NCBI GenBank assembly: GCA_001662655.1
Contig: KV460220.1
Direction: 5' to 3' (one strand)
Length of the DNA stretch: 64,000 nucleotides
From: Pseudogymnoascus verrucosus
Taxonomy: Eukaryota
Position numbers and translations under genes: made by a program. Within the stretch, counting starts at the first letter, position 1, and each line of letters begins with the position of its first letter. Positions 40,626 to 63,865 of the stretch are shown here, piece by piece. A model generated the notes under the pieces. The model searched no databases. It saw only the letters and a list, made by a program, of their open reading frames with translations, and was not told where the DNA came from.

Positions 40626-40974
40626 GTTGTCAGAGGCGAGGTTACTAGCTAGAACAAATACTAAGAGCTAGATGGTGGTCTCAAAGTGTAAATCAACATA
40701 CTGGTAATGGCCTCACGTAGTTTTGCATAGTCGGTTCGAATTGTACCTTGATGCAGGTGGGTGGAGCGAGCCCGAAATGTGCCAGCACGGCTATGTGAGG
40801 TAGTCGTCGTGACCAGCTTTTCGCTTCGTGCGAGGTTTGAGGTGGCAGCAACGACGTGGTTTAATGTTCGTGATCACCAAAATGCGTGAGTATCTTTTTA
40901 TAGCAGTTTATATGTAAAGGTGCATAAATTAATTGCCACGTTAAATTAATTCTCACTTCGGTGCTCCCAGCCCC

Positions 40975-41073
40975 ATCCACTCTCACGTCCACTCCTACAC
41001 CCACTCCTACACCCACTCCTACACCCACTCCTACACCCACACTCACTCCTATTCCCACTTCTACTCCAACTCC
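40975..41073. repeat. Low-complexity (CCCACTCCTACA)n minisatellite
   Basis: About four perfect 12-mer units from ~40989, with degenerate hexamers on both sides. Confidence 0.8.
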
Positions 41074-41227
41074 TGATAATCATCTTGGGTGCACGTCGGA
41101 GGCTAGTACTCAGAATCTAAGGAGTTCTAGAAGAGGATACAGACAATCGAATACAGATGGAAACAACATTAATATCCATTGCCTCTATCTGAAAATGGGC
41201 ATCGCATCATTCAAGATGCTTCACCCG

Positions 41228-42754
41228 CTAATTAAACCCTTTAAAAACATCCGTACATACCACATCCAACGTAGAGGCATCGACATTTAAGCAGTAGGCC
41301 TCATTCTTGCCGCCTGGGCTCACGACATTGATATCGCTTGCCACAATGCCATTACACACTGTACTTGAACTGCAAGCAAACGTACCAATCTGCGGCTGGT
41401 ACTTTGTGCTTGTTTTCCCAATGAAATTCTTGAACACGATATCGGTGATTGTAAGAGGGGATGGGTATTCCAGACAGAGGGTAAGATTCTTCTGGCCGTA
41501 GCACTGATCGACTTCAATCGCGTAGTCGACGTTGTTGATATACATTGTGTCGTAGGTTATGTTGTTAACCCTTCCTGAACCACCGCCACCTTGGAGATCC
41601 CCAGAGAGGGCGGAGGCAGTGTTCGGCCACACCTTGATGCGGGCACCGTCAGAGGCGTCAGTCATAGATATGTTGTAGACATGGACATTTTCGACAATGC
41701 TGTAGTATTTTAGTATTGATTTGAGACACGACAATTTGGAGATGCTCACTCAAATTGGCCAACATATTGGCCGAGAGAACCGACGGATATACCGTGGGAG
41801 CCCTTGCAGACGAGGTTTTGGATCAGGATGTTGGTGCTGTTTGGTTTAAACGCAACGCAATCTTCACTTGTCATTAGATTGTTTGAGGTGGTCGGAGGGG
41901 AGTTTGCTTACCATCACCATTAACGATGTAAGAATTTTGAATCGTGATATCCGTACTCCTGTAGGTGTCCCAGCCATCCGTGTTCTTCGCTGGGTTTGCA
42001 CTGTTACTTCCTCCTGCAATGTTGATGTTATCAAAAATAACATTGCTAGAATTAGCGACGAAATGATAATACTGTGGCGAATAACGCAGTACCAAATCGC
42101 TCAATATCGAGTTCTTAAGACCGTCAACACCGAAGAGGACTGGGCGAAGAGTGTAGATATCCTTGGCATATAAATCATACCAAGCTTGTCCGTTGCCGTC
42201 GATAGTTCCGCCACCGTATATGTTGACGTCGTTGCCACCCAGTTTGAAAAACGAGGTTACGTTCTGGAAGACGAATGGGAAAGAGTTGGCTTGCCAGTAG
42301 TCGGTGTCATTAGAGAAGAGCCACATTCCTTGGATGTCTGCAATTGGGTTAGTTTGGATGTTCAGAGTATTTTGTTGTGATTCTTACCAAGGTCAATGTG
42401 GTTTAAGAAAGTCAAATCCATTGCGGTGCCTATGAAATACTGAACCCCCTCCCTGAAAACAACATGCCCGCCATTGTTGCAGTCATGCAGCGCCTTCATG
42501 ATATACGGCGTGTCGTCTGTCTTGCCATCCCCGTGGCTCTTCGCGTAGCACACCTTGTGGCGCGCTGCAGGAGATGGAGGTGGCACATGGGGTTTGTGGG
42601 GGTGGCACTTGACATTTGGTCGGGACGAGGTGTGATCTGGTCGTTTCTGGCCAGCGTTGCTCTTCCCCCAGTTACTCACAGCCTCAAATGTTGGAGACGC
42701 AACTGAGAGCGTCGCCGACGCAATTGTCAGGGCGGTTGCAAGTTGGAATCGCAT
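41228..42754 (-). CDS. Secreted exo-polygalacturonase (GH28, PgxB-like)
   Basis: Signal peptide [19 protein letters not shown] and the four GH28 motifs NTD, GDD (across an intron), GSHG and RIK. Three introns. Confidence 0.92.
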
Positions 42755-43791
42755 GTTGGTGACTGTCTTTGCTTATTGGGTTGATATGAGCGAAGCTGCA
42801 GAATATCTCTGGGCATCCTGCCAATTTTATAAGCTTTGGGATAATTTGGGCGGTGACGTGCCCCCCAGCCCATGGCTATTTCCCATGCCAGGGGCGCGGT
42901 AAAATTGTCCGGATCCGCGTCGACATTGGACGACAGCTGCGAATAACGGAAGCACAACGGAAGCATTCAGGCCCACAAGAGCTACCAACATAGCTCTCAA
43001 TTGAGGGGAAATACCCCAACTTACGCCCTACCCCGCAGATTTCGAGCCGCTATCAGTGGTCGAGTGATTTACTTCCCGTTGGGCGGGTTAGGATCCCTGC
43101 CAAGCAAATCGTGGAAATGTCGCTATTGGTGGAACTTAGGTCGCTGTCCGACCGTACGCATAAATTATCAAGATGCTCATCAGATTTGACGTTTCTAGAA
43201 GATTTGCCGAAATTTATGTGTGCACAAAATTGCCATGGAGAAGCCAGGGCACATTTACGCTGTCGACGTAGTCTCACCATACAATCCGCAATTACTGTTA
43301 ATCTCATCTCATTAGCTAATTTAGCCCATTTTAGCCAATTTTGAGGTTCCGTATTGAGTGTGTTTTACCAACTCTTATTACTCTTATTACTCTCGTTATT
43401 TTTATCAATATCTGTCACTACACGCCTTGAAGGTTTCTTTTTGCCAAGATGACTGTCGTTTGGTTCTAATTTAAGGTTAGAGCCATCTGAAAAAAGCACA
43501 CCACATCTGTTATGCGGGAGATCGCTGATCGGCATTGTCGCAGGTTTATATTAGACTTATGTCTCCTTTACTTCTTTACACATCATATCTGGAAATCACA
43601 GAGGCTTTTAGCAAAGGAATATATAACAGGATCGAGTATACTTCGTTAATAATTAAAGCTTTGCTTGGCCTGCTTAATTAGGTTAGACCTACCACTACCT
43701 AAATTGAATGCTGTGCCGCCTGGAGATAGGTTCCAAACCTTTTCTAATCGTAGAAGTTCAGCAAAATCACATCCACAAAGTACGGAATGCA

Positions 43792-45576
43792 ATGGTTTGC
43801 TATCAATTGCGATCGTGGCTTCATGTCGTAGTCGGGCTTCTTCTCTTGGGCCAGATATCCTTCATCCAATGCTCCAGTCAACCCCCGCGTCGGGGAGGCC
43901 GACTAGGATCCCCCGGATGTCCCCGGCAGCCACACCATGTCGACCCAGGCCCCCCTCCGCAGCCGATAGGTATTGAGTTTGGCCCCGAACATGTGTATGA
44001 GTACCTCTAATCTACGATTGCCTCATGTGCTAATACTTCACAGCGTCGCAGCATATGCTCATTCCCCCACCAATATCACTATCCTCGCCATGATCAACGG
44101 CCGTAATTCAAGTCACGCGGCTTATTTTGAGAACATGATGCTGCTCCGTCTGGCAAACGATAAAAGAGTTATAGCCATGGCCAAAATCAGCAGGGAGAAT
44201 TTTCCTGTCCCAACTGGGAAAGAAATAGTACTAGCCGTTAAGAATTTGTTGTGGCATTATTTGCGCAACAAATTGCCTGCCATTCCCTTCTTTGGCGGCC
44301 CAAAGCATGGTGAGTCGGATGATGGATTCGACGATGAATTATACTATGAATCAGACCATGAATCAGCATCATGGATTTGGATGCCATGGATTTGGATGCG
44401 CTCTATCCTCAGCGGGGTTGGGGATGACATAGAAGATGCACTTATCTTCGCCCTCGACAAATTCATGGAGGTTGCCGGACTTATCACGCTCAATGAAGTT
44501 CTTCGGCGTAAAGCCAAATCGCTAACGGACAACGCCATCAGAGAAAGCTTCACCCCCGTCATCCAAGAGCTCCTAGACAGCGCCCTGAAGAACCATAACG
44601 TCACCATCGACTTCGCCCTCCTCAGTCTCCCTGAATACTTCCCCCAGAAACACGAATACATCCCAATCAATGCCTGCTTCTCTCTCGGGGTCAAGTCAGC
44701 CCATGCTATCATCCCTAAACCCCTTGCCGCACTTGAAAGCGTGGCCACTAAGCCAGAGGCACGTATCCTCCTCCTCGATCAAGGCCACCACCACATGAGT
44801 GTCCAGGTGGTTCACTACCGTCGCAGTGCCCCCACGCCGTTTGACGCATTCCGGGGTGAGGCGTTGGAGAAGACTCTTTTCGCACGGGTGACGGCGAAGG
44901 GAGCACTGCACGATCAGTTTATGTTGAAAGATAAGTTCAACATCGTACGGGATGGGTGGAAAGTTCATAACGAAATTGAGCGAGCGAGGATCTTGATTAA
45001 AGATAATATCTTAGATTGCGTTAGTAAGGATAGGGCAGACGAGGATTGTGAGGAGGATCGCCACCACAATGAGTGGCCGCTCGATCTCAAAAATTGGTGG
45101 ACCATCATCGAAGATTTCGGGCCCAGCTCCATCCCAACAGTCGTTTTAGAATGGGAGGATGTGAAAGCCAGCGAGGACGAATACGTAGAGAGATTAAGCA
45201 ACAGTCTCGAGAACTTCCTAAGGGCTTCACGAAGTTAGTATCACGGTCCCATTAATGCTCCTAGTTCCGAGACTAATGCCTTACAGAAGTCCGCCTGGAC
45301 AAAGAGAATGGTGGGTTGAGCGATTTCGGACCGCCGCAAGAAGTCGACACTGTTGTCATCGTGACAGACCAGCCCCATGGAGCTCTGCTTAGACGCGCAG
45401 CTAAGCTCACTGTTGGAGATGGAGTGCGGATCTACGGGGGTAGGATTACAGATTTCTCCATGGCTGCTGAAGGGGCGGCGATTCTCGCACTCAAGCGAAG
45501 ACGGCGTTGGGATGATTTGCAGGAGTACGAGGAGGGTTTGACATTAGATCCGCCGGTGTGCGACGTGCATGTATGA
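43792..45576 (+). CDS. Hypothetical protein, probably a diverged actin-like ATPase/Hsp70-fold with an N-terminal hydrophobic leader
   Basis: ATG 43792, introns 43995-44043 and 45234-45286. IGIEFG, LLSLPEYF, ILLLDQG and MAAEGAAILA loosely parallel the Hsp70 motifs GIDLG, VITVPAYF, VLVFDLG and AVAxGAAI. Confidence 0.55.
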
Positions 45577-46098
45577 TATACTTAATGAAATAGACTTTGC
45601 TACTACCCAATACTTCTCGCCCTTATATGCGAGAGTAATTTGTGGCTACTCGAGGGGAAGGCTGTAGACTGGCTCATGAAGCGCCAACCGATCTTCAAAC
45701 AGGATATACAATAGATAGAAGAACTAGAACAATAGATGGGCCCATTAATTGATTCCACATAGTCTCGCTTCCAGCAGAATATTGACCTTCGTAGTGTTCA
45801 GTTGATATAGAAAACAATGCGAATAGGAAGTGGTTTTACTTCAGGATTAATGGGATTGATGTTGGATTCCTGTCGACAATTTCACGCCATGGGTATCTTT
45901 CGATGGAGCCAGAGAGTAGTCAATATTATTAATAGAGAGTAATCAAATCACAACACAGTGAGTAACACCAGGGCCCAATTTTTACACTAAATACAGCTAT
46001 CATAGAGCCTTCATATACAAACGCCGCCTATATAATCCCCGCTATACCCTTGCTTACTTCTCTACACATAAAAGTCGCGAGAAAATAGAAATCAAGAT

Positions 46099-48443
46099 TT
46101 AATGGTCGTACCCAGCGCCGCGCTGCCACGGACTACTATAAACCGTTAGCATCAGTGACCGGACAAGAGAGGAAACAAATGCAAAACTCACCTCGGGGTA
46201 TTCTGATCCCTCACCCCCCCAAGCGGACTCGCATTGTTCGCACGGCTATAACCCCCCTGGCTCGAGGCCAGAGACGTTCCACTCCCCCTCGCCCCAGCTC
46301 TTCCCATAAACTGTGGCGTTGGTGACGGACCCATGCGCGTACTAGCTGCGAGAGGCACATCACTATTGTGCCTCGACTCTGCCGCCAACGACCCCTGATA
46401 TACGCGCTTCTCATCAAATGGGCTCCCACGGCCGTCGTAGGAGTTCGCCGTTGATGGAGGGAGGCCGATGTTTGCAGGGTGGTGACGGATCGAGTCCGAT
46501 TCAAAGGAGTCGTCGTCGAGGTCGAGTCCGGGCTTGAAGCCGCCCTTCATCTCGCCGCGGGCCGTGGCACCGAGGGCATCAAGCTCCGTCGACAGTGCGG
46601 TTTGGGACTTGATGAAAGATGCGCGGTCGTCAGACATGGTTTGGTAGCGTGTGTCTGGGTTCTTGCGCGTGGAGGCGAGGATGGTGGAGACGATGACGAG
46701 GACGAGGAGGACAAAGGCGAAGGCAGCGTTGACAACGAAGAAAACGACGCCGATGACACCTGTAACGATGGCAGGCTGACCGAAGATGTCTGAGAAGAAG
46801 ATCAAGCAGACTGCGTTGAAGAGGTTAATGGAGCAGATCGAGATGTTGACCGTGTTAGTGCTCTTGTCCATCCAAGGCTTGAGGACGCTCGCGGCGACAA
46901 GCACGCCGGCTTCGATGATTAGAAGACCGATGGCTTGCGCACTGCCGCTGCGCTGGCCAAGCGCAATGAACATGCCTTTAACGAGGATGTAAACCAGGGT
47001 TGGTATGATGTAGTAGTATGCCGTTGCGCGGAACTGGATGTATAGGAAGCCCCATCTGTTCAGCGACGTTGGGTCGGAGTAGAGCATGTACGCGGGGTTG
47101 TTGTGCATAGCTTTCGAGCGGCGCCCGATCAGGACCACCTTGGAAGCTGCCCAGGCCAGAATACCTGTCATCCCGAAGAAGAAGATGACGGCTAGGGTGA
47201 CCTCAGCAGGCGAATCGGCCTTGGTGAATTCCCAGAGACAGAGGATCGTCATCTGCGGATATCCAATGAGGACCATGCGGTACATAATCCCCTTTAGGAC
47301 GACCTTCCAGCCATTGCGGAAGTCCTCGAACTTGTCGCTCTTCATCCACTTAGACTTGACAGCAAGCTCACAGAAGCCCTTAAAGGCCACAACGCCTAGG
47401 GTCGTGGCAGCTAGGAAGAAGCAGAAGAACATGAGACCAGTAAGAAACACATTTGTCGCCTCCATACCAGCGCGGAACGCCACCCGGTCAATGCCCCTGA
47501 CAGTGTAAGTCCCAGTAATGGGGTTAGCGACATTCTGGTTAGTTGCTCGCTTTAAGATGGAAACGCCGCTGGAGTTCTCCTCTGCAGCCAACGTCAGTGA
47601 GCGCCTCAAGACGTGGACAGACGTTGTCGTGAGGGAGTTGAGGATCGTAGCTGGCGTTCCTCCAGTCGACTTCTGGTACCACGACGCAATACGCTGCATG
47701 AATTCCACGCCGATGATGCCCATGGTCCACTGGAAGTTCTGGGTCCACGACTGAGCCATTGGCGGGAGTGGGACCGATGACATTCCGACTATAGCAATGG
47801 CCTGGAAGTAACCGAAGAGCGAGAGTGCATATGCGGCAATGTGCGCAGCGGTGTTGGAGTGGCCCAATCCTGCAATCACAGCCGATATCACGAGAGCCAA
47901 ACCAGCAACACCAGCAGTGGCCCAGCTGACACCGTTCTGATCAACCGTTTTACCATTCGATAGTTGCGCCTCGACGCAGGCCGAGATCACGCCGGGGTTT
48001 GTTTTCGACTCAAAGTTGATCTTGACGGTCGCGTCAAGATCGGGCACGGTGTACGCGATAAACGGGACATTCTTCACAACATCCTCACTAACGGTGTAAT
48101 GTGTAGTGAAGGGCATCGGGCCGGGTTGCATCGTGCACAAGCCAATCAGCTCCTTGGTGGTGCATGGGTCGATGGAGGTTTTTATAATGACATAGCCGTA
48201 CGCGGCCACCTCGATCACGAGGGTGAAGTTTCCGGTGAGCGTGGAGGTGCCGTCCACGTCGAAAGCGATGGTGCGGTTGTCGGGCGTGAAGGCGACATTG
48301 AACAGCTTGGCTGTGAAGTTCGAGTTGTCGATGCATTCGCTGAGGGATGTGGATGCGAGGAGCCGCTCCGCCGATGCCGTGCTGGCGATGAAGGAGATGA
48401 GGGCGATGAGGGTGGTGAGTGGGGAGAGCTTTGCGAAGCGCAT
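46099..48443 (-). CDS. FLC-family (flavin carrier / TRP-like, Pkd2-related) membrane protein
   Basis: Signal peptide, ML-like TRP_N domain, ACVEAQLSNGKTV, SWTQNFQWTMG, WGFLYIQFR, PWMDK. Final mini-exon SPWQRGAGYDH* after an intron at ~46133-46191. Confidence 0.92.
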
Positions 48444-49285
48444 GATGGGCGATTCTGTCGGGGCAAACGAGTGTGAGCAATAGTTGCTGGTTGAATGTTG
48501 TTGGTAGTCGGCAAGACTCGAGAAGTCGGGTCAACAAGACGTCGTTGTTGTCGCCGTCGTTGTCGCCGTCGCCGTTGCCGTCGCTGTCGTGAAGATAAGT
48601 CTCTTTATGCGCACTTGACTACCATAGTAGCTTCTTCATTCCTTGGCTACTCCTTGCATCGTTTGTTCGGGCTTCTTCGTGATTGTTGTATTGTATGGAT
48701 GATGATGATGATGATGATGGATTTAAAGAAGACTCCTTGGCGATGGACTACCGTCTTCCCTCCATGTCCGCAAATACATGTGTATAGTGTGGAGTAATAC
48801 TTGTAGTGCAGTCAGTGAACATCCGCATACGCAACGCTGACTGCGCCCCAATAATCCTTCTCCGGCTTTAGCGGATGTGCCCTGTATTGACCCTGTATCG
48901 GCCCTGTATTTCTGGCTTCCGTGTGGCTAGATCCAAGTTTAGCAGTCTGGATCAGAGCGGGGTGTGGTTCGTATTGGCGCTTGGCGCAATTTTAGCATTT
49001 TAGCTGGACCCTATGAAGGATCGGCCTTCTGACAGGGAGGGGAAAGGATGTCAGCAGGGGTCACGTGCGATGAACGAGCATAAATATAGCACGTGACCTC
49101 ATATTATTGTTGTTCTTGTGATATGGTCACATGACCACTCACCACTTCACCACAATTTTATAAATAGAGGGCGTGAGATGAGATGTAAGTGTGCAAGCAT
49201 ATCTTTAATTATAAGAGCTTTACTACAGTATACTACAGTGTATAGCACCGATTTATAATAACCAATTCACTGACCTAGTCCTCCC

Positions 49286-50881
49286 TTACTCAACTACATC
49301 CAAGGTATTGATAACATATCCCTGAAACTTCCTGGCCGAAACCTTGCTCTCAAAGAGAATATCCAATTCCATGTACGTCCTGCCCTTGGTCTCAGGCAAC
49401 CTGAAATACGCCCACACGAGGCAACACAAGCTCATTGACGCAGCCGGGAACGCAGCAATGCCTTTGAGATTTCCCTGCTTTGGATTGAGCATGTACGGTG
49501 CCACAACCGCGCTGATAATAACCATTATATAGCAACTGTTTCGCGCCAATCCGAGAGTCTTGCTGCGCAGGCGACTCGACGATATTTCACTCGCGATGAC
49601 GAATGGGATTGGCCCAACGCTAAGGCCGTAGGTTCCAAACCAGACGAGCAGGAGGACACACTGCGCCCATGCAATGCTGCCTGTGCTTGGTGCGAGAGCG
49701 AGGAATCCCACGATCCACATGATCACGGTCATTACTGCGAGGCCGCAGAGGAAGATCTTTCGTCGTCCGATGTAGGCTTGCAGGAACCAAGAGATGGCTG
49801 TCCCGACAAAGGCGATGCTATAGGTGCCTAGCGCGAGCTTATACGAGTCGCCTGGCGACAGGCCGGCAAGTGTGAAGAAGTAAGTGATGTAGGCCTGTAT
49901 GGCGAAACCAGAGAAGACCTGTGTGGTCCAGGCTAGGCAGGCGATCTCTGTGCGGCGGAAATCCGTGCCCTTGAAGCAGTCGAGGTAACTGCTACCGGCG
50001 CTCACTTCCTTTTCGTGTTGGTTGGTATAGATGATCATGTCCAGATTCCGTTTGACATGGATATTATCTTCATCGTTGAATTCAGACAGGCGTGATAGAG
50101 CGTGTTCGGCGTCTTTGAAACGTCCCTGGCGTACTAGCCACCAAGGAGAGTCAGGCGCAAACCAGAGGATGAAGAAGAGTGGAACAGGCCAGACCCATTG
50201 CACGGCAAAGGGGATCCTGTACGACCATTCCGTGGGGTTTGATATCAAGCCATCAAGGACACCGGCTGCGATTATATGGCCAATGACCCAGCAGAGGTTA
50301 ACGAATGTGGTGAGGTAGCCCCGAAGAACCGTGGGGCAGACTTCTGCAGCATACGACGGCGCGAGGATGCCAAAGAAGCCCCATGGGAGTCCGCACAAGA
50401 CTTCACCCACGAAGAGGACCTCGATGTTTGGCGCGAAGAAAGTGATGAAGATAAAGGCCGTCATTAGCGCATACGAGGCGAGCAACAATTTCTTGTGTCC
50501 AAATCTATCGACCAAGATTCCGTTGGCGAAGATGCCAATCATGATACCGATGTTCGCGCCTGCGGTGAGGCCCACCTGCCAGGGCGCGGCAATGGAATAT
50601 TTGCCGTTTGGGAGTTGTTCGCCGTACTTCTTCTGAAAGGTTGGATAGGCGTAGAAGGAGCCGATGATCTGGATGTCGTAGCTCTCCATGACTGTGGCCA
50701 TGGACACAATGACGGACCAGGCCACGGCTTTTCGATAGATTTTCATGGCCTGCCAAAAGGTCAGATCGTGCTCGGCCTCAGTGGCAAGGCGTGCATTTTC
50801 GCCCACGACCTTGCTAGAGGACCCGAGTGCTGCGTCTCCATGGTCCGTTAGGACTTCCGTCTTCTCCTTTGTGGTGTCCAT
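49286..50881 (-). CDS. MFS sugar porter (alpha-glucoside/maltose permease-like clade)
   Basis: Intronless. MESYD, DRFGHK, YAAEVCPTVLRGYLT, YRIPFAVQW, PDSPWWLVR, DCFKGTDFRRTEI, LPETKGRT. First in-frame ATG at 50881. Confidence 0.92.
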   Translation of the reverse strand: MDTTKEKTEVLTDHGDAALGSSSKVVGENARLATEAEHDLTFWQAMKIYRKAVAWSVIVSMATVMESYDIQIIGSFYAYPTFQKKYGEQLPNGKYSIAAPWQVGLTAGANIGIMIGIFANGILVDRFGHKKLLLASYALMTAFIFITFFAPNIEVLFVGEVLCGLPWGFFGILAPSYAAEVCPTVLRGYLTTFVNLCWVIGHIIAAGVLDGLISNPTEWSYRIPFAVQWVWPVPLFFILWFAPDSPWWLVRQGRFKDAEHALSRLSEFNDEDNIHVKRNLDMIIYTNQHEKEVSAGSSYLDCFKGTDFRRTEIACLAWTTQVFSGFAIQAYITYFFTLAGLSPGDSYKLALGTYSIAFVGTAISWFLQAYIGRRKIFLCGLAVMTVIMWIVGFLALAPSTGSIAWAQCVLLLVWFGTYGLSVGPIPFVIASEISSSRLRSKTLGLARNSCYIMVIISAVVAPYMLNPKQGNLKGIAAFPAASMSLCCLVWAYFRLPETKGRTYMELDILFESKVSARKFQGYVINTLDVVE

Positions 50882-51013
50882 ATCTGCTGCCCGCTCCAAG
50901 CGCTTGTTTTTTTTTAAAAATAGAGGGGGAACCGCATGTTAATTAAGCTTCGAGATTTCTTAGACAGCCGCGCAAGCTGTCAAACGTCAACATGATCAAT
51001 ATCAAACTAGTCC

Positions 51014-51023
51014 ATGGCGCCAT
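51014..51023. promoter_or_regulatory. ATGGCGCCAT palindrome, matching the CYS3/MetR (sulfur-starvation bZIP) consensus ATGRYRYCAT
   Basis: Perfect 10-bp palindrome in the divergent promoter of the sugar porter and the sulfatase. Confidence 0.55.
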
Positions 51024-51929
51024 ATGGAGGATTCTCACCCAGCCATGTGGAAACAGATACTGAACTCACCAGCAGGTTACATTAACATTGCTTCTGTGCC
51101 GCAAATGTAACCATACTATATAGGGGCTCGTAGGTCAATTAGGCATTTCTACTCTCACCACCAATAACAGATCAACCATCTATCTCAATCCAGCAACAGA
51201 GTTGCGGCTCGACGAATCAATCCAGATGCTGCACAGAGGGCCCCACAGTTGCTGTGGCCGTCGGCTATCGGCTCGCGTCGCCTTGCGACTCCGGGGTGCA
51301 TCCCAGCCGATTTCCGCAATAACATCATCCGACGTTGTGGGTGATATCAGTGTGTCCCCATTATTTTTTACCACACAAACCCACAACTTGTATTTAGTTT
51401 TTATAAATCACATCTCGTAACTACTTACTCTTTAACTTTAATATTTCGGATAAACAGTGTTTTCACTTTGAATGCCACAACCGGGAAAGGGGAATATGAA
51501 ATTTTAGGGTGGAAGGCGTCTTATTCTAAGATTCATACCTATATTACATGCCCCACAAAATATTTACTTATGGAGTAGTAGTATAGTAATTAACATCACA
51601 CAATAAACTCCTGTAACTTTTCTTTTTGATTCAGCTCCTACAGCTCTTATCATTTCACTGTTTCGTGGTTACTGTGTCGTTCGTTGCAAAGTTCCAACCC
51701 GTATCATGTGGGCTTTGATAGTTTAGGCTAGCAACGTCAAAAGCAACATCAAAAGCAACATCAACAGCAACGTGGTTACGGTTATGGAACCTGGACACCC
51801 CCGCTCTAGATAGCCTTTTTTGGCGCTAGTATGCTGGTGCTATAATAGTGCAACTTACCCGACTGCGCCGGGCTGTCATATATCGCATAGGGTTCTCCCC
51901 GTCAAGGTTGTACTTACAGTTTAGTATAG

Positions 51930-51997
51930 TACGTGTGCTGCCTATCATTTTCGTCCTCTACATTACGTGTGCTGCCTATCATTTTCGTCCTCTACAT
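51930..51997 (+). repeat. Perfect 34-bp tandem duplication just upstream of the sulfatase start
   Basis: tacgtgtgctgcctatcattttcgtcctctacat at 51930-51963 and at 51964-51997. Confidence 0.95.
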
Positions 51998-52026
51998 TGA
52001 CCTATACAGCCAAGCCCAACCTCAAG

Positions 52027-53544
52027 ATGGCGACCCGTCCCAACATTCTTTTTATCATGGCCGATGACCATGCGTCAAAGGCAATAGGATGCTATGGCGC
52101 GAACATTAACAGCACTCCTAATATGGACCGCATTGCTGAAGAAGGAATGCGGTTCAACCACTGCTATGTCACCAACTCGATCTGCACGCCAAGCAGAGCT
52201 TCAATTTTAACTGGCACCTACAACCACGTCAATGGCGTCGTCACCCTTGCAAGCAAGATAAACAAGCACATACCTAATGTCGCCAAGCACTTACGCACGG
52301 GCGGATATCAAACTGCTATGATCGGAAAATGGCATCTGGGTGAAGGAAGTGATCATGAGCCTACTGGATTTGACTTCTGGTCGGTTGTGTCTGGGCAGGG
52401 CGCGTATCACGATCCGGAGATGATTGAGATGGGCGAGACGCGGTATGAGAAAGGATACGCGACAGACATCATTACAGACAAGTCTCTGGACTGGCTGAAA
52501 AGCCGTGATCAAGACAAGCCGTTTTTCTTAATGTGCCACCACAAAGCACCACATCGGTCTTGGGAGTGTGATCCAAAACACGCAGACCTCTACACGGAAG
52601 ACGTCAAGGTCCCGGAAACTTTTGATGATGACTACAAGAATCGCGCAAAAGCAGCAGCCGAGGCCAAGATCAGGGTAGACACTGATCTAACGTACTTTGA
52701 TCTTGGGCTGGCTCAGCCTGATGGAGGATCTGAGGTTGGCGAATTGATCAGCCTTACATCTACGTTAAGAAAGATCCCAAACCCTGAGGATGTGACAAAA
52801 TTACGCCTCATTGATAAGCAGAGCGGTGAGGTGTTCACGTTTAAGACGAACGCTGAGCTTCGGCATTTCAAATATCAGCGTTATATCAAGCGCTACCTAC
52901 GCACCATTGCCTCGATAGATGATAACGTTGGGAGGATGTTGAAGTACCTTGACGATGAAAACCTGACAAATGACACCGTCGTCATTTATACATCCGACCA
53001 AGGCTTTTTCCTTGGAGATCACGGCTGGTTCGACAAGAGATTCATGTACGAAGAATCTTTCCAGATGCCATTCATGATTCGATATCCACGAGAGATCGCC
53101 AAGGGCAGCGTATGCGACGACATTGTCTGCAACGTCGATTTCGCCTCCACATTCCTAGATCTGGCCGAGCTGCACAAGCCATCTTACATGCAGGGCCGCT
53201 CGTTCCGTAAGATATTGAACGGTAACACGCCAGACGATTGGCAACAGATCGCTTATCACCGCTACTGGATGCACAGAGATGCTGAGCATAACGCGTATGC
53301 GCATTATGGCATTCGTGATCAACAGTATAAGCTGATATACTGGTATAATGAAGGTTATGACCTTCCTGGTACGTCTGCTGGAGGACAGCCAAGAGAGTGG
53401 GAGCTTTTCGATTGTGAGAAGGATCCTCTGGAACTGTTTAACGTCTTTGGACAATCTCAGTATACGGAGGTTGCCAAGAGGATGATTGCTCAATTAGACG
53501 ATAAGATGAGGGAGATTGGGGATGAACCGGAGCATATACCTTGA
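52027..53544 (+). CDS. Cys-type formylglycine sulfatase, bacterial-type N-acetylglucosamine-6-sulfatase-like (S1_11-like), no signal peptide
   Basis: MATRPNILFIMADDH, signature CTPSRASILTG, GYQTAMIGKWHLG, HHKAPHRSW, YTSDQGFFLGDHGWFDKRFMYEES, WELFD..KDPLE. Single exon. Confidence 0.88.
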   Translation: MATRPNILFIMADDHASKAIGCYGANINSTPNMDRIAEEGMRFNHCYVTNSICTPSRASILTGTYNHVNGVVTLASKINKHIPNVAKHLRTGGYQTAMIGKWHLGEGSDHEPTGFDFWSVVSGQGAYHDPEMIEMGETRYEKGYATDIITDKSLDWLKSRDQDKPFFLMCHHKAPHRSWECDPKHADLYTEDVKVPETFDDDYKNRAKAAAEAKIRVDTDLTYFDLGLAQPDGGSEVGELISLTSTLRKIPNPEDVTKLRLIDKQSGEVFTFKTNAELRHFKYQRYIKRYLRTIASIDDNVGRMLKYLDDENLTNDTVVIYTSDQGFFLGDHGWFDKRFMYEESFQMPFMIRYPREIAKGSVCDDIVCNVDFASTFLDLAELHKPSYMQGRSFRKILNGNTPDDWQQIAYHRYWMHRDAEHNAYAHYGIRDQQYKLIYWYNEGYDLPGTSAGGQPREWELFDCEKDPLELFNVFGQSQYTEVAKRMIAQLDDKMREIGDEPEHIP

Positions 53545-54159
53545 AAAATAGTTTACAGACGATGCGGAGGGGCGGTGTAGCAATAATATGCTATTTTGTA
53601 GTAGACCTTTGACGCTGGTGTAAATAGAGTAGCTTCACAAAATATATTATACAACCAACATTTTTATAATATATATATTTGAAATCCCTAGGAAAATGAA
53701 AGAGTCCCAGCAGCAGCACAGTCACAATTCGAAAGGATAAAACGGCCGAGTACGAATGCATAAATAACAAGATCTGTATGAACTTGGGAGGCCGCATTAT
53801 TCACGCTTGATATCCCATTTTTGTCAAACTGACCCGGGGAAGAGGTTGAGACTAGAAGTATGGATGATCCGACTGAGCTGAGCGGATTGATCCTAGATCA
53901 AGACTACGCTACTCTTGTTTTGTGAGGTTGAACTGACCATGCAACGTTACTTATCCGAATCGCGTAATTTGGGGTGTTCTCTGCTTTTTCCTAATTTGGA
54001 TTCAAACAGCCATACGATCGGCGGGCTTGGTAGAGTTGGCAATTATCCTAACTGGGAGATGTCCATAGCATTTGGAGATAAGTTGAGCCGCTCTACCCAT
54101 TTTTAAACAGTCATTGATTTTTATGTTCATATTTCAAATCATTACATACATGTTTCACC

Positions 54160-56026
54160 ATGAAGATATTTGCTTTATTATCACTCGTCTCTCGGGTGAC
54201 AGCAATATGGCCAGCCCCTCAATCTTTCTCTAACGGAAGTTCCGCTGTTTGGCTTGCGGAGGACTTCCTGGTCACATACAATAATCATAATGTAATGTTC
54301 TTGTGAGGGTGTATTTCAACTATCAAGCCGTCTTATTTTCAATGAAGAAACTGATAATTGCGTTCTACTGCAGCTTCACAAACGCACAGAAGAGACAAGA
54401 TCAACAAGAATATCCAGCTTAGAAATTGTCCAGGCGGCCGTAGACAGGGCTCGAAAGTCAATATTCACAGAAAGCTTTGTCCCTTGGAAGTTCTACCCGC
54501 GTAATGAGATTGATAAATTCGAACCACCTGCCAACGGTAAATCAAAAACATATATACGGCAACTCGAGATAACTCAAACCACACCTGACAATTCGGCAAC
54601 ATTCAAGCCTCTCGCGGGACAAGTTGACGAAACTTATAACTTAACAATAGGAGCAGATGGAGTAGCATCCATTACCGCAGTATCCTCAACTGGCGTCCTC
54701 CATGCTCTTGAGACTTTCAAACAACTGTTTTACTTACACTCGGTTAGTGGTACGGCTGGAGTGTATTGCAACCTCGCCCCGGTCAATATCAGAGATGGCC
54801 CAAAGTTTGGCCATCGGGGTGTGAACTTGGATGTTGCTAGAAATTGGTTCCCAAAGGAGACCATCCTTCGAACCATTGACGCCCTTTCCTGGAACAAGTT
54901 CAATCGCTTCCACATCCACATGACAGATGCACAGTCTTGGCCCATAGATATCCCTGCATTGCCAGAGTTGTCAAAAAAAGGCGCGTACCAGACTGGATTA
55001 TCCTATACTCCTCAAGATATCGAGGATATCCAAGTCTACGGCATCTATCGTGGTGTTGAAGTCATCATAGAGATAGATATACCAGGCCATACAACAGCTA
55101 TTGGGTTTTCGCATCCAGAGCTCATTACTGCCTTCCGGGAAAAGCTATGGCACAATTACTGCGGCGAGCCACCTTGTGGACAGTTAAAACTTAACTCGAC
55201 CGCCGTATACGACTTTATCACTCAACTATTCGACGATCTTTTGCCCAGAGTTTCTCCTTATTCGGCATACTTCCACACTGGCGGCGACGAAATCGACGCT
55301 CGAGACTATGTTCTGGATGAGACCGTGAAGTCCAACGATACCGCAGTATTAACCCCGTTGATTCAAAAGTTCATTGATCACAGTCATGACCTAGTCAGGA
55401 AAGCCGGCCTCGCACCAATTGTTTGGGAGGAGATGCTTCTCGACTGGAACCTCAAGCTCGGTGATGATGTCGTGGTTCAGACCTGGATCAATAGTGCATC
55501 TCTCGACAAGGTAACCGCGCGTGGACATAAAGCTCTCTTCGGCAGTAACGACTTCTGGGTCAGTAACCCCCAAGCCTCCTCAAATAATTTGCGGGTCACT
55601 AACAAGCGACAGTACCTTGCCTGTGGTCACGGACAGTGGTTCAACTTCAACGACGATACCTTCGCTGCCCACTACCCATTCAACGACTTCTGCTCTCCGC
55701 TTAAGAACTGGCGTCTAATGTACTCGTACGACCCAACCGCCAACCTATCTGCCAAACAGGCTGCGTTGGTACTTGGAGGCGAGGTCCACCTCTTCACCGA
55801 GCGGTCTGACCCGTCAAACTTGGATGCGATAATGTGGCCACGCACAGGTGCGGCAGGAGAAGTGATGTGGAGCGGGCGTCAAGATTCGAGCGGGAAGAAT
55901 AGGGGACAGGTTGACGCAGCACGGAGGTTGTCTGATATGAGAGAGAGGATGGTAATAAGGGGGGTTAAGTGTGAACCAATTCAGATGGCATACTGCACAC
56001 AATACGATGGTGACTGCACCTGGTAA
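54160..56026 (+). CDS. Secreted beta-N-acetylhexosaminidase (GH20)
   Basis: Signal peptide then IWPAPQ. HRGVNLDVARNW, HIHMTDAQSWP, EIDIPGH, catalytic HTGGDE, VWEE, MWPR. Introns ~54292-54373 and 55559-55612. Confidence 0.93.
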
Positions 56027-56259: not shown

Positions 56260-57147
56260 TTACTCGTAGAATACGAGACACCTAACCTCAATACTCTGTC
56301 TCCCCGGGGCCTCTTTCGGCGTCTGCGGATCTATAAACGCCGTATGCCCCGAGCCATGCGCAATTCCCCCTCTCCCAGTCATCAGCTCGCTCTCTGAATC
56401 AAAGCACTTGATAAACATAGCCATGTCGGGCGTCATATCCTTGAAGTAATGGAACCGGTGCTTCTCGTTCGGTGCTATGACATACTGCTCGCCCGTGACC
56501 TCGTACCCCTCTGTCGACGCCGCGGAGCTCGGATCCGCGAGGACTTCGCCCGTTTGGCTCGCGCCTTTGGGGTACAGGAGGTCCACCTTGACGAAGTCGC
56601 TAGGGTCAATGCTGCGCCCGTCGATGACGGCGAGGGGGAAGTCCGACGCGGGGTGCTGGATTGGTCGCCAGACGTTTATAATTTGGTACCGACCCTTGAG
56701 GAGTCCCTCGATTTCGTCTTCTGGGGCATGACGACGCACTCTGACCTCAGCTGCGGCGGGGGTCTGGTCTATATGGACTAGTTGGACTGGTTGTCGCGGA
56801 GAGGCCTTCGCCCTTCGTCGTATCGTGTGATCAAATATGACCACCTTTTTCACGCCCGGAAGCTTCTGGCGAACTAGAGCCTCAACTTCACCGTAATACC
56901 CCTCTTTCACTTGCTTATCATCTGTAAAGGACGTTTCTTTCGCTGGGGCAGTGTACACAGCAAAGCCACAATTATCGGTAGTGAACTCTTTCTCATGGCC
57001 AGTTAAGTCATGGACTGGACGGCTATAATCTTTTAGCCGGTAGGAATTGCCAGCTCCATCAACCTTCGTCCAAGGTTTCTTAAAGGGTTCGGTGGCGTGT
57101 GGATCGTATGAAGTTGGATCAATATATTTGAATGACGCAGTAGTCAT
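56260..57147 (-). CDS. AsaB/GA4-desaturase/CmcJ-like protein (putative non-heme iron hydroxylase/desaturase)
   Basis: FDHTIRRR, VHIDQT, RYQIINVWRPI, PLAVID, FIKCFDS, HTAFIDP, RQSIEVRCLVF. Likely start MTTASF at 57147. Confidence 0.8.
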   Translation of the reverse strand: MTTASFKYIDPTSYDPHATEPFKKPWTKVDGAGNSYRLKDYSRPVHDLTGHEKEFTTDNCGFAVYTAPAKETSFTDDKQVKEGYYGEVEALVRQKLPGVKKVVIFDHTIRRRAKASPRQPVQLVHIDQTPAAAEVRVRRHAPEDEIEGLLKGRYQIINVWRPIQHPASDFPLAVIDGRSIDPSDFVKVDLLYPKGASQTGEVLADPSSAASTEGYEVTGEQYVIAPNEKHRFHYFKDMTPDMAMFIKCFDSESELMTGRGGIAHGSGHTAFIDPQTPKEAPGRQSIEVRCLVFYE

Positions 57148-57761
57148 CGTAGCGGTTAGGTAGCTGACAGTGCTGGTATGAACGAAAGATATAGGAATCC
57201 CTTGCTTCAAAACTAAAGCTCTCACTTGCTTTCTTAGAAGTGGGATATCGGTGACGAGACAACGAAATGCTTGAAATGTCATGGTACTATTTTGGCGGAA
57301 TGAGGGGTCGTTGAAGCTTACAAATTAAGCTACTTACATGGCCCACTAAGCCAAGAAGTTAGCGATGCCACCCTCACCACATCCCTTAACCGCAACAACG
57401 CATTGAGCTATTCTCTCTCGAAGCTGCCCCTTCCCGTCTCTTTGATTAGGTTACTCTGATTGTGGTAGTAAGAGCAGGGATGGAGGATTGCTGCGATGAT
57501 GAAATAATTCTAATATGTTTTTGAGCACGTGACAGGCGCTGTTCATGAGCAGTGATTATACGATTGGGTTTGATGATTGATGTATTTATATATCTATATC
57601 TTATAAGAATTGTAGTTTATAAAACCCATAATAGTAACATGCTGAATCGGTAAGGCCTTCAACATCTATATGTGAAAAGCTGTCCACAACGACCGTTTCT
57701 CAACGTCTCTAGTATACCGCGTAAACATCTATATGATAAACCACATATCCCCTGTACTCCC

Positions 57762-61374: not shown

Positions 61375-63865
61375 ATGTCGGAACAACACAACCCCAACGT
61401 CGCGGCCGGGCTCGAGCCAAATGGCAATTTTTCATGGGATGATTCCTTCGCAAGTGAATCCCAATCGAAGCGGCAGTCTTCGCACCGTAATTGCCATTGC
61501 TATCGTTCACATGCGGATGCGGCTGACATGAACTACAGAGGACAAGAAGAAGTACCATTGCCCATGCGGCAGCACCATGTCTCGAAGGTATGTCCATGGG
61601 ATCTTCGAACTCAGGCTACAACAAAAGAGAGCAAAGATGATCTAATCGTCCTCGCATTTAAGCGACGTACTGTTGCGACATATTCGAAAGTGCCAGATGG
61701 CCCGGGATACACTTGAGAGCTCGGGTTCCACGTCAAGAAGGCCGTCTCGGTCTAAAACGGCGTGCAATGAGTGTGCCGCCTCTAGACTGAAATGCGACTC
61801 TCAAAATCCTTGCTCAGGATGCAAAAAGAAGTCATTGAGGTGTGAGTACACAAGGAAAGGATACTCGGATCCATACAAAGTCTTCCGTATCCCAGCGGCA
61901 AATCCTGTCGTGGAACAGGCACAACAGGCACCCGAGCCACACCCTCATCAGCCTCAAAACATGAATGCAGAATCTGCCGCCAGCATTCTACCAACGCCGC
62001 CTGGCAATACTATATCTGCTGCGGAACAAAGTGGTGTGCTGGAATTCACCGGGTTTGATTTTAATACACCCTTCGATCACACAAATGCGACCCCCCTTTC
62101 AGGCTACAGCTCAGCCGGCATGAATGATGCTTTCCTAGACCTAGACTGGGACTCATTATTAACGAATTTAGACTGGCCGGAAAATATGGTCTCGGCAAAC
62201 AATGCCGCGACGGCTTCGTCAGATTTTACCGAAATAAGCTCAGTTCCGAAAGAGGCTGCATGGAATTTCACTGAAGGGCTTCAACTGCGGCAAATCGACA
62301 GTGTCGAAGCCAAGTGTGTTGAGATACAGAACTACATAGGGGCGTTTCAGACGGGTATTGACCATACCATTCTATCCAAGTACATAACTCGAGATCGGCT
62401 GGTCGATTGTGTCCAGCTCTACGGGAAATGCTTCCAATCCATCCACCCCATTCTTCATTTGCCAACATTTGAACTCACTAAGACGCCACCTGACTTACTT
62501 GCAGCCATGATGCTAGTGGGCGCTTGCTATTCCAGCAACATCATTCCTCCAGCGATTGTTGTACAGGGGGCAATACATATGCTGCTTGTATTAGAGTGCT
62601 CGTCGGTAAGCGCGTCTCGGTGGCTGTTTCGGAACATAGACGCTGACAGGTTTATTTTAGCACGAAAGAGCAATGAACGCGCCCCCATTAGCATCAATAC
62701 AGGCCACTGCTCTATTGTGTCAGCTCCTCATTTTAACCCAGAACCCCCAAGCCTATTATTTCGCCACAATGTATAGAGCTCGCACCATCTCGGTACGTCT
62801 AATATCAACGTTATTTTTCTTTGAAATTGGCCGGACTAATCATGGTTGTTCCTGAGTGTAGATGGCCGAACGTGCAGGTCTTTTCTACGCCAGCGACACC
62901 CCAAGTCACTGGGATTTGAAAGAGAGCTCCTTTGATTGGTTTCAATGGAGTCAATTAGAGATGCGAAAAAGGTTAGCAGGATATATGAACTGACGTATAT
63001 GTTCTGCACAACTAACATTGAGCGATCTGGTAGACTTGCGCATCACATTTTTGTCGACGACATTGGAGCCAATATGTTTACACGAAGCTCATCACACATA
63101 TCACCATTCACGTTCTACGTCGACACACCATGTTATAATGATTGCTGGGTAGCCCCCACTGCGAATGAATGCCTAGAGAAGCTACGAATCGCACCTCCTC
63201 CTATTAAGGTAGCAACGGCTGTCAAAAGGCTTCGATCGGCCTCCTCTCTACAGGGCAATCATCTTTTCGATGCATCAGATTGTGGGATGCTTGAAATCAT
63301 AGTAGCGCTTCACAACGTACTGTTCCGCGCAATGGAGGAGAGCTTGGATGATGAGAATAATGTGCCACTGGACGACGCCACCTCGTCAACCCAATCAACA
63401 GATGTGAATTTCTCAGACTTACTGAATCGCGACCTCCTCAATTACGACATTGCAAATATTGCCAGTAAGATTGTCGGTAAATACGGGTCCGCCTCTATCA
63501 GACGCGTTGACGATGCTCTCGATGCCTGGCTGAGGAATTGGAATGCTCGTCTAAGGCGTGACATCTACGACGAGAGACACGGCGCCTTCACTCATCCATT
63601 GAACTTCTGGCTCCTGGCTAAATTGTTTGTCGTTCTGCACTTTTTTCGAAACCGTTATCAAGGAAACGTCCCCGACATGGGGGAGGATGGCCAACCACAA
63701 CGAGATTCAGAACTGCATGCATTCTACAACAATAATGGAGCGGCCCAGGGTAGGTTGGCAATCCAGATGCAGGTGATTGGTTGGCTATCAAAGCTTAGAA
63801 AGCAACGAGAAGGAAGCTTGTTGTCTGGCGGGAGTTTCATATCGGAGGTTTTGAACATGCAATAG
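61375..63865 (+). CDS. Transcription factor with a C2HC zinc finger, a Zn(II)2Cys6 cluster and a fungal-specific TF domain
   Basis: Spliced KKKYHCPCGSTMSRSDVLLRHIRKC (introns ~61488-61538 and ~61588-61661), then ACNECAASRLKCDSQNPCSGCKKKSLRC and FQSIHPILHLPTF. Further introns near 62607, 62793 and 62971. Confidence 0.85.

Follow-up and report, generated by a model that had tools for sequence, protein, structure and literature searches.

A gene for a family 20 glycoside hydrolase (GH20) lies at 54160-56026 on the plus strand of the 64,000-nucleotide stretch of Pseudogymnoascus verrucosus contig KV460220.1 (assembly GCA_001662655.1) analyzed here, which we call the window. The encoded enzyme has exchanged two residues that are nearly universal among its relatives, the Asp of the Y-L-D-C-G motif for Ala442 and the Trp of the W-x-E motif for Phe500, and its catalytic residues are intact. 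We consider it very probable that this is a functional, specialized paralogue whose -1 subsite is altered on the C-6 side, and that it belongs to a conserved clade. That it prefers 6-sulfo-N-acetylhexosamine (6-sulfo-HexNAc) and works with a neighboring sulfatase and transporter is a proposal to which we give somewhat less than even odds. The fullest form of this proposal, with a probability of roughly one in three, is that the enzyme would be the first fungal sulfoglycosidase, holding the 6-sulfate in an Arg-free pocket of Ala442, Phe500 and an acid-protonated His445, serving a route of release, import and desulfation, and encoded by a gene that moved between Leotiomycetes and Penicillium.

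Substitutions in a conserved GH20 active site

Directly after the second intron of the gene, positions 55613-55627 read TAC CTT GCC TGT GGT, encoding Y440-L-A442-C-G with the Ala codon at 55619-55621, as had been pointed out in an earlier sequence-only reading of this DNA. That reading had also noticed HLFTE at the later W-x-E motif, and positions 55784-55798 are indeed GTC CAC CTC TTC ACC, with the Phe codon at 55793-55795. The catalytic GGDE, described there as intact, is encoded by GGC GGC GAC GAA (G-G-D349-E350) at 55280-55291.

Close relatives were represented by the best 120 matches listed from a search of 5.8 billion proteins, which were aligned with the spliced model using MAFFT to give 121 rows. 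Column 442 of this alignment has Asp in 108 rows, Ala in nine, a gap in three and Leu in one, and column 500 has Trp in 107, Phe in ten and a gap in four. The nine Ala rows, all of which have Phe at column 500, are the model itself, five Penicillium proteins, two Pseudogymnoascus proteins and P0066 (Penicillium flavigenum). The lone Leu belongs to P0049, whose gene model passes through the intron out of frame. Fungal GH20s had been said in the sequence-only reading to carry YLDCG as a rule, and Asp is found in all 108 other close relatives among the matches listed.

The nine clade rows were then compared with the 108 others, the partial rows P0012, P0036, P0045 and P0049 having been dropped. 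Only five columns are at least 80% conserved outside the clade yet different inside it, namely S131T, D442A, W500F, L524M and E547D; D442A and W500F are the two radical changes of the five, and both are at the active site. Residues R192, D229, H283, D349, E350, W395, W415, W439, Y440 and C443 are invariant in clade and outgroup rows, the catalytic pair Asp349-Glu350 being conserved in 9/9 and 108/108 of these, respectively. In GH20 enzymes the Arg, His and Trp residues of this set line the -1 subsite, and the conserved Tyr stabilizes the oxazoline intermediate. The Tyr has the role described in PMC11659886 (this article, PMC8162980 and PMC4384365 are cited here and below from excerpts).

Position 445, three residues beyond Ala442, is Arg in 43, Lys in 40 and His in 11 of the 108 outgroup rows, and is Tyr in one P. 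expansum sequence of the clade. Since Asp442 has given way to Ala and Lys/Arg445 to His, the clade has lost an acid and a base together. Further clade substitutions are L449 to Phe and Y/W465 to Phe. In Bt4394, a second-shell Trp, Trp485, reportedly holds the residues that follow the Tyr (PMC11659886), and we suspect that the Trp of the W-x-E motif is its equivalent. On that assumption, Asp442, Trp500 and Lys/Arg445 would contact one another and would have changed as a group.

Two candidates for a gain of a basic residue specific to the clade were considered and set aside. Arg299 is present in 9/9 clade rows and is mostly Asn (65), Asp (18) or Gly (13) in the outgroup; it is not tied to Ala442, because the Asp-type sister protein P0049 also has Arg there. 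Arg503 is confined to Pseudogymnoascus and is Gln in Penicillium.

The loss of two nearly universal residues might suggest a decaying or non-catalytic copy, crippled for want of the Asp that binds the 6-OH and of the stacking Trp. We regard this as highly improbable. The intact reading frame matches a public model exactly, the catalytic Asp-Glu pair, the Tyr, Arg and His and three Trp residues are invariant, only five conserved columns differ, and the clade has been kept in many species of two genera. Active GH20 enzymes that do without this Asp are also known from the excerpted literature (HexA alpha, Bt4394, SGL and BbhII).

Gene model and predicted fold

The spliced gene has three exons and encodes a 576-residue protein that is letter-for-letter identical to database protein P0251 (Pseudogymnoascus verrucosus XP_018131486.1 / OBT97753.1). 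The hydrophobic N-terminus, MKIFALLSLVSRVTA, looks like a secretion signal, and residues 1-12 form the only long stretch of the AlphaFold2 (AF2) model in which the predicted local distance difference test score (pLDDT) falls below 50. The second intron (55559-55612) has no in-frame stop, and reading through it would add 18 residues immediately ahead of the catalytic Tyr. Because this intron is open in frame, some public or metagenome gene models, such as P0045 and P0049, run through it or lose the frame here. Several GH20 orthologue records, including P0251, bear the mistaken name 'N-acetyl-glucosamine-6-phosphate deacetylase', and P0015 is among the problem records.

Pfam recognized the GH20 catalytic domain PF00728 (E 2.6e-83; 280.7 bits with a cut-off of 22.3) and the GH20b-like N-terminal domain PF14845 (E 8.8e-26; 91.6 bits with a cut-off of 27), and a scan of the protein against NCBIfam assigned no family. 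The AF2 model, built on a 94-row alignment, had a pLDDT of 91.3 and a predicted TM score of 0.93. A Foldseek search with this model ranked OfHex1 (TM 0.82), HexA and HexB (TMt 0.88-0.89) and AoHex at the top, with Bt4394 and BbhII lower, and the protein is predicted to form a (beta/alpha)8 barrel like that of the solved GH20 enzymes. By sequence, the closest solved relatives were OfHex1, the Aspergillus oryzae hexosaminidase and human HexB/HexA, with E values of 1e-49 to 1e-60.

Distribution and origin of the YLACG clade

The clade was enlarged by opening the 90%-identity clusters of its members (up to 15 members per cluster), which gave at least 31 sequences. The site is covered in 29 of the 31, and YLACG was found in 29/29 and Phe500 in 28/29 of these, many of which are near-identical Penicillium proteins and so are not independent. 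The sole member with Ala442 and Trp500 (HLWTE) is P0246 from Pseudogymnoascus sp. 23342-1-I1 (VE03_04128). Because P0246 is nested among sequences bearing Phe, its Trp looks like a reversion, for which two base changes are needed, or a conversion from the canonical paralogue.

A wider survey took the best 150 matches among 1.84 billion cluster representatives (50%-identity clusters), searched with no word index. The conserved Tyr was aligned in 111 of these, and the residue at position 442 was Asp in 104, a gap in five, Ser in one and Ala in one, the sole Ala belonging to the clade's own representative, P0039. Phe500 occurred in three of the 104 matches with an aligned Glu502, two of which keep the Asp. 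Ala is therefore rare and confined to one clade; it is not the common state of GH20 enzymes unlinked to a sulfatase, which would have spoken against specialization.

A quick IQ-TREE phylogeny (LG+G4, with the SH-like approximate likelihood ratio test, SH-aLRT, as the only support measure) was computed from 50 chosen rows, comprising 13 YLACG, four partial and 33 other matches, with about 70 further YLDCG matches left out. All YLACG rows, together with three partial rows lacking the site, formed one branch with an SH-aLRT of 100, within which the Pseudogymnoascus sequences (99) and the Penicillium sequences (100) each formed a subclade. As the YLACG rows form a single branch, Ala and Phe appear to have arisen once. 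The sister of this branch is the metagenome protein P0049, and the whole group is nested among GH20s of Leotiomycetes. When the out-of-frame residues of P0049 are read back through the genetic code they give Y-L-D-C-G, so that the nearest outgroup probably has Asp. The position of the Penicillium copies inside the Leotiomycete group suggests either that the gene passed from one class to another or that the paralogue is old and has been lost many times. The Penicillium YLACG proteins P0003-P0006, P0024, P0066 and P0271-P0288 are candidates for such a gene transfer between fungal classes.

The enzyme had been called a paralogue from this one locus, and a canonical YLDCG GH20 is in fact also present in Pseudogymnoascus (the P0030 cluster). 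An accession of that cluster shares its block with the YLACG gene of VKM F-4515, and the two forms are thus probably encoded in one genome.

These data bear on whether the enzyme might be an ordinary hexosaminidase of the chitobiase type, in which the contact set Asp442/Trp500/Lys-Arg445 was swapped in a near-neutral way, compensated and fixed once, the substrate staying essentially as it was. In favor of this explanation are the single origin in the tree, by which one event covers all carriers, the charge-balanced changes in which an acid and a base were lost together, the existence of mixed states (P0246 combining Ala with Trp, and three sequences combining Asp with Phe) and an otherwise canonical active site. 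We nevertheless think it unlikely. Asp is held in 108/108 close relatives and in 104/111 of the wider representatives among the matches listed, and under so strong a constraint its loss should cost affinity for the 6-OH. A canonical paralogue has been kept as well, probably in the same genome. Ala has also been retained in two genera, Pseudogymnoascus and Penicillium, between which the enzymes are 71-74% identical.

A neighboring sulfatase related to GlcNAc-6-sulfatases

The gene preceding that of the GH20 enzyme encodes a protein with the sulfatase domain PF00884 (E 4.5e-56) and the C-terminal domain PF16347; a scan against NCBIfam returned only sulfatase models below threshold. Its designation in the sequence-only reading as N-acetylglucosamine (GlcNAc)-6-sulfatase-like was upheld by its best solved relative, the N-acetylglucosamine-6-sulfatase 5G2V (E 2.1e-132). 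The second solved relative was the mucin-desulfating sulfatase 7P24 (E 2.6e-112), and galactose-6-sulfatase and arylsulfatases ranked below. We take 5G2V to be BT4656 of Bacteroides thetaiotaomicron. It aligned with the fungal sulfatase over the full length, signature included, and the position that becomes formylglycine is Cys in the fungal enzyme and Ser in BT4656. At its start the alignment pairs residue 3 of the fungal sulfatase with residue 27 of 5G2V; the fungal enzyme thus begins where the mature bacterial enzyme does, has no signal peptide and should be intracellular.

Closer to the fungal protein than BT4656 are sulfatases of Marinobacterium, Granulosicoccus, Marinomonas and roseobacters, to which it is 70-75% identical over the full length. 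These proteins, from proteobacteria of sea and soil, are cytosolic and carry no specific functional name in the sources. Identity of 70-75% between fungus and bacterium is unusually high and suggests either inter-kingdom transfer or extreme constraint.

The genomic context of the bacterial homologues was examined at ten annotated loci of 80 kept, with homologues 55-72% identical. Transporter genes of the TRAP or ABC type stood beside the homologue in at least nine of the ten, IclR regulators in four, a ROK sugar kinase or regulator in four and a formylglycine-generating enzyme in two. By analogy, this context fits an intracellular enzyme that would act on a sulfated monosaccharide imported whole, and it does not of itself identify the sugar. 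One locus, L080 of Ornithinibacillus gellani, encodes between 1322 and 12647 a ROK protein, a GH2 beta-galactosidase, the sulfatase homologue (55%), an open reading frame (ORF) with no Pfam family, a GH20 and a formylglycine-generating enzyme, an arrangement suggestive of a bacterial operon devoted to sulfated Gal-GlcNAc glycans. Nothing was drawn from this GH20 in support of a sulfoglycosidase, its best solved relative (6JQF/7EZT) not being labelled as one.

The window sulfatase is transcribed divergently from an MFS sugar transporter (PF00083), which may be the importer of the sulfated sugar. The region between these two genes may act as a bidirectional promoter, and the genes of the proposed system may be co-regulated.

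Linkage of the GH20 and sulfatase genes

The GH20 and sulfatase genes are adjacent in six Pseudogymnoascus genomes, the window included, and consecutive locus tags mark the pair (VE03_04129/04128, V496_06344/06343 and VE00_04244/04245). Two public records, P0248 (1003 residues) and P0250 (1026 residues), contain both CTPSR and YLACG. They fuse the sulfatase and the GH20 enzyme into one protein of about 1000 residues, which is an annotation problem.

The sequence-only reading had proposed a comparison with sulfatase-linked GH20s in other fungi. In 4/4 other Leotiomycetes that were checked and encode both proteins, namely Venustampulla, Phlyctema, Coleophoma cylindrospora and C. crateriformis, the canonical YLDCG GH20 and the sulfatase are on different contigs, as judged by the unequal lengths of these.

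Relation of position 442 to acceptance of a 6-sulfate

The proposal that the loss of Asp442 bears on sulfated substrates rests on an equivalence drawn in the sequence-only reading between Ala442 and Asp452 of HexB beta or Asn423 of HexA alpha, and the alignment with OfHex1, YFDCG versus YLACG, places the residue accordingly. The further point made there, that an Asp at this position disfavors a 6-sulfate, finds support in PMC8162980, by which alpha-Arg424 of HexA permits 6-sulfated substrates and beta-Asp452 of HexB hinders them, and in PMC4384365. According to the latter, the relative activity with p-nitrophenyl-GlcNAc-6-sulfate was less than 1% for the A. oryzae enzyme, 6% for that of P. oxalicum and 13% for that of T. 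flavus, and the poor hydrolysis was put down by its authors to Glu332, Glu546 and Asp472 of TfHex near C-6. Because HexB Asp452 and TfHex Asp472 are tied in this way to hindrance of the 6-sulfate, the loss of the Asp is as expected for an enzyme that takes 6-sulfated substrates.

Characterized GH20 sulfoglycosidases carry sulfate motifs after the Tyr, listed in PMC11659886 as YLNR in HexA, YYINR in Bt4394, YYICR in SGL, YFPQ(X10)WAC in BbhII and SN in F3-ORF26, and Arg438 of BT4394 has been called critical (PMC10570127). Glycosidases that release 6-sulfo-GlcNAc are rarely identified and are wanted as tools for locating sulfate on glycans (PMC11659886, PMC10570127). The GH20 examples named in these two articles are all bacterial or human, and prediction of a sulfoglycosidase from sequence alone is not feasible according to PMC11659886. 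Judging by titles, we found no report of a fungal GH20 sulfoglycosidase among the literature matches listed, and none of a Pseudogymnoascus hexosaminidase, the paper that names both terms being concerned with Prototheca.

Human HexA alpha is like the enzyme described here in family and fold (Foldseek 2GJX/2GK1) and in lacking the beta-type Asp two residues after the Tyr (Tyr+2). In HexA, however, Asn and Arg bind the sulfate, whereas the Ala-Cys of the fungal enzyme offers neither a donor nor an Arg; HexA is also lysosomal and dimeric, and the fungal enzyme is predicted to be secreted. A further difference is that Trp is present in the W-x-E motif of HexA. Bt4394, Prevotella SGL, BbhII and F3-ORF26 are likewise GH20 exo-enzymes with a residue other than Asp after the Tyr, and Bt4394 (7DUP/7DVA/7DVB) and BbhII (7WDT) were structural matches to the AF2 model, yet are only about 19-20% identical to the enzyme. 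At Tyr+2 the known sulfoglycosidases have Asn, Cys or Pro, or the Ser-Asn pair of F3-ORF26; Ala442 is non-acidic as these are, but the bacterial enzymes have polar or cationic sulfate ligands, unlike the one here.

Canonical fungal GH20s, such as those of A. oryzae (5OAR; sequence match E 3.6e-59), Talaromyces flavus (TfHex) and Penicillium oxalicum, have in common with the enzyme the YL.CG.G motif and the disulfide cysteines; they carry the Asp and Trp, and the YLACG clade is without that Asp. Ostrinia furnacalis OfHex1, an insect chitinolytic enzyme, was the best solved match (E 9e-60 for the V327G variant 3S6T and 1.6e-58 for 3NSM) and the best fold match. It differs in having Asp and Trp, its HMMER alignment with the fungal enzyme reading YFDCGYGAW against YLACGHGQW and LWSEQ against LFTER; over the W-x-E region the OfHex1 sequence GGEAALWSEQSD was aligned with GGEVHLFTERSD of the fungal enzyme. 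OfHex1 is not known to be linked to a sulfatase.

A possible route and the evidence that weighs on it

Taken together, these comparisons allow a route to be proposed. The GH20 protein is predicted to be a secreted, catalytically competent exo-beta-N-acetylhexosaminidase of a small clade of specialized paralogues. Its -1 subsite would have been rebuilt on the C-6 side by the changes of Asp to Ala, of the W-x-E Trp to Phe and of Lys/Arg to His. Such an enzyme may accept, and would probably prefer, a non-reducing-end HexNAc with a 6-O-substituent, most plausibly 6-sulfo-GlcNAc. In Pseudogymnoascus, it would release GlcNAc-6-sulfate outside the cell, the divergently transcribed MFS sugar transporter would import the sulfated sugar, and the adjacent intracellular GlcNAc-6-sulfatase homologue would then remove the sulfate to give GlcNAc and sulfate. 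His445, or residues elsewhere, could stand in for the sulfate ligand of the known motifs.

Several observations weigh against a 6-sulfated substrate. Characterized GH20 sulfoglycosidases place hydrogen-bond donors after the Tyr (N-R, C-R, Q..W or S-N), usually including Arg, and the motif here, Y-L-A-C-G-H, has Ala-Cys at Tyr+2 and Tyr+3 with no Arg, Asn, Gln or Ser. Ala cannot donate a hydrogen bond, and Cys443, being invariant in all relatives, is probably structural. The Lys or Arg at position 445 of 83/108 relatives is His in the clade, so that a nearby cation is gone. The net change is charge-neutral and more hydrophobic, where a gain of positive charge would be expected of a sulfate site. 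Three acidic residues have been named near C-6 in TfHex, and two of them still have counterparts in the clade, Glu309 and Glu502. The coupling of Ala and Phe is imperfect, P0246 having Ala with Trp, and P0096, P0569 and P0592 having Asp with Phe.

The genomic side of the argument has weaknesses of its own. The linkage of the GH20 and sulfatase genes has been seen in one genus only and therefore amounts to a single evolutionary event. Members of the sulfatase family are common in fungi with no YLACG enzyme, other Penicillium and Aspergillus species among them. The intergenic region 50882-52026 and the region upstream of the GH20 gene, 53545-54159, have no motif in common beyond chance (shared 8-mers, 23 versus 24.0 expected from shuffling; 9-mers, 5 versus 6.5; 10-mers, 1 versus 1.8; 11-mers, 0 versus 0.5). 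Finally, the Penicillium carriers of YLACG yielded no orthologue of the window sulfatase among the matches listed, which were the best 120 each to the sulfatases of the window and of Penicillium brevicompactum (8000 candidates scored), along with the P. brevicompactum cluster and eight further Penicillium/Aspergillus clusters of up to 15 members each. Many other Penicillium species do appear among these matches. As far as the matches listed go, this weakly suggests that the Penicillium YLACG enzymes may work without this sulfatase.

The same observations can be read to mean that the pocket was rebuilt for another change at C-6, such as a 6-O-acyl, 6-O-methyl or 6-deoxy-HexNAc, or for broad tolerance of bulky groups, with the adjacent sulfatase a coincidence. 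With Ala, Phe and His in place the pocket gains room and hydrophobic character, polar or charged groups having been removed (D to A, W to F, K/R to H, L449 to F and Y/W465 to F) and none added; the motif has neither a hydrogen-bond donor nor an Arg, unlike those of the known sulfoglycosidases; and the Penicillium carriers have no sulfatase orthologue among the matches listed. Tolerance of bulky C-6 groups is, moreover, known for fungal GH20s (PMC4384365). On the other hand, adjacency with the sulfatase has been kept in six Pseudogymnoascus genomes while the canonical GH20s are unlinked in 4/4 cases, the closest solved relative of the neighboring enzyme acts on exactly GlcNAc 6-sulfate, and no gene of the window hints at a natural 6-acyl or 6-deoxy substrate. 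We hold this alternative to be possible but doubtful.

The sequence-only reading had gone so far as to suggest a specialized 6-sulfo-beta-hexosaminidase paralogue. The part of that suggestion concerning a specialized paralogue is supported by changes fixed in a clade; the part concerning sulfate meets a motif, Ala-Cys, with no evident sulfate ligand. On present comparisons the clade is best filed, pending an enzyme assay, as a putative variant of the known GH20 sulfoglycosidase kind.

Other genes in the window

Genes downstream of the GH20 gene in the window encode a CmcJ/NvfI oxidoreductase family protein, an MFS_1 transporter and a Zn2Cys6 binuclear cluster protein (Table 1), and we found no evidence that any of the three belongs to the system. 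The Zn2Cys6 protein could be a local regulator; nothing ties it to the GH20, sulfatase and sugar transporter genes. Upstream, the interval 36867-48530 contains ORFs with ankyrin repeats and with NACHT/NPHP3_N domains. Two GH28 fragments (41231-42383, minus strand) are probably one polygalacturonase gene split by an intron, an ORF without a Pfam family lies at 43970-45235 (plus strand), and a gene for a TRP-like channel is found at 46191-48530 (minus strand).

Table 1 Features of the GH20 locus and its surroundings in the window
Feature	Position	Strand	Basis or remark
MFS sugar transporter, divergent from sulfatase	49286..50881	-	Pfam PF00083, E 2e-86
1.1-kb intergenic region between transporter and sulfatase, possible bidirectional promoter	50882..52026	.	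gene positions
Sulfatase, single exon, 505 residues, GlcNAc-6-O-sulfatase-related, no signal peptide	52027..53544	+	Pfam PF00884, PF16347
C53-T-P-S-R57, sulfatase signature, Cys expected to become formylglycine	52183..52197	+	aligned to S-G-P-S-R of 5G2V
GH20 exon 1, residues 1-44	54160..54291	+	spliced model, identical to P0251
GH20 intron 1, 82 nucleotides, GTAATG...CAG, canonical	54292..54373	+	
GH20 exon 2, residues 45-439, N-terminal GH20b-like domain and most of the catalytic barrel	54374..55558	+	Pfam PF14845, PF00728
Catalytic pair Asp349-Glu350 (GAC GAA) in H-T-G-G-D-E	55286..55291	+	H-T-G-G-D349-E350 at 55274-55291
GH20 intron 2, 54 nucleotides, GTCAGT...CACTAAC...CAG, canonical	55559..55612	+	
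GH20 exon 3, residues 440-576 and TAA stop	55613..56026	+	spliced model
Tyr440, conserved GH20 Tyr preceding the 6-position motif	55613..55615	+	invariant in 9/9 clade and 108/108 outgroup rows
Ala442 (GCC), Asp in relatives	55619..55621	+	
His445, mostly Arg or Lys in relatives	55628..55630	+	His in 9/9 clade rows
Phe500 (TTC), Trp of W-x-E in relatives	55793..55795	+	
Glu502, conserved Glu of W-x-E	55799..55801	+	Glu in 9/9 clade and 107/108 outgroup rows
CmcJ/NvfI oxidoreductase family ORF, 340 residues, directly downstream of GH20	56263-57282	-	NCBIfam NF041278, E 1.6e-70; no Pfam match
MFS_1 transporter	downstream of GH20		Pfam
Zn2Cys6 binuclear cluster ORF, 5.6 kb downstream of GH20	61646-62776	+	E 1.2e-07

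Implications

Were the enzyme found to be an ordinary hexosaminidase, it would follow that an enzyme of this kind can tolerate losing the Asp, and that a sulfatase gene next door in a single genus can be misleading. The clade offers a clean natural experiment even for a substrate other than a sulfated sugar, since two radical changes have been made in an otherwise invariant active site and an unchanged paralogue stands alongside. If, however, the enzyme does act on 6-sulfated HexNAc, an Arg-free fungal solution would widen the known modes of sulfate recognition, and the motifs now used for finding sulfoglycosidases, such as YYINR, would miss some of these enzymes. It would also suggest that fungi make use of sulfated glycans from animals, mucins and keratan sulfate among them. 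Molds of caves, dung and stored food would, by means of such an enzyme, gain access to these glycans.

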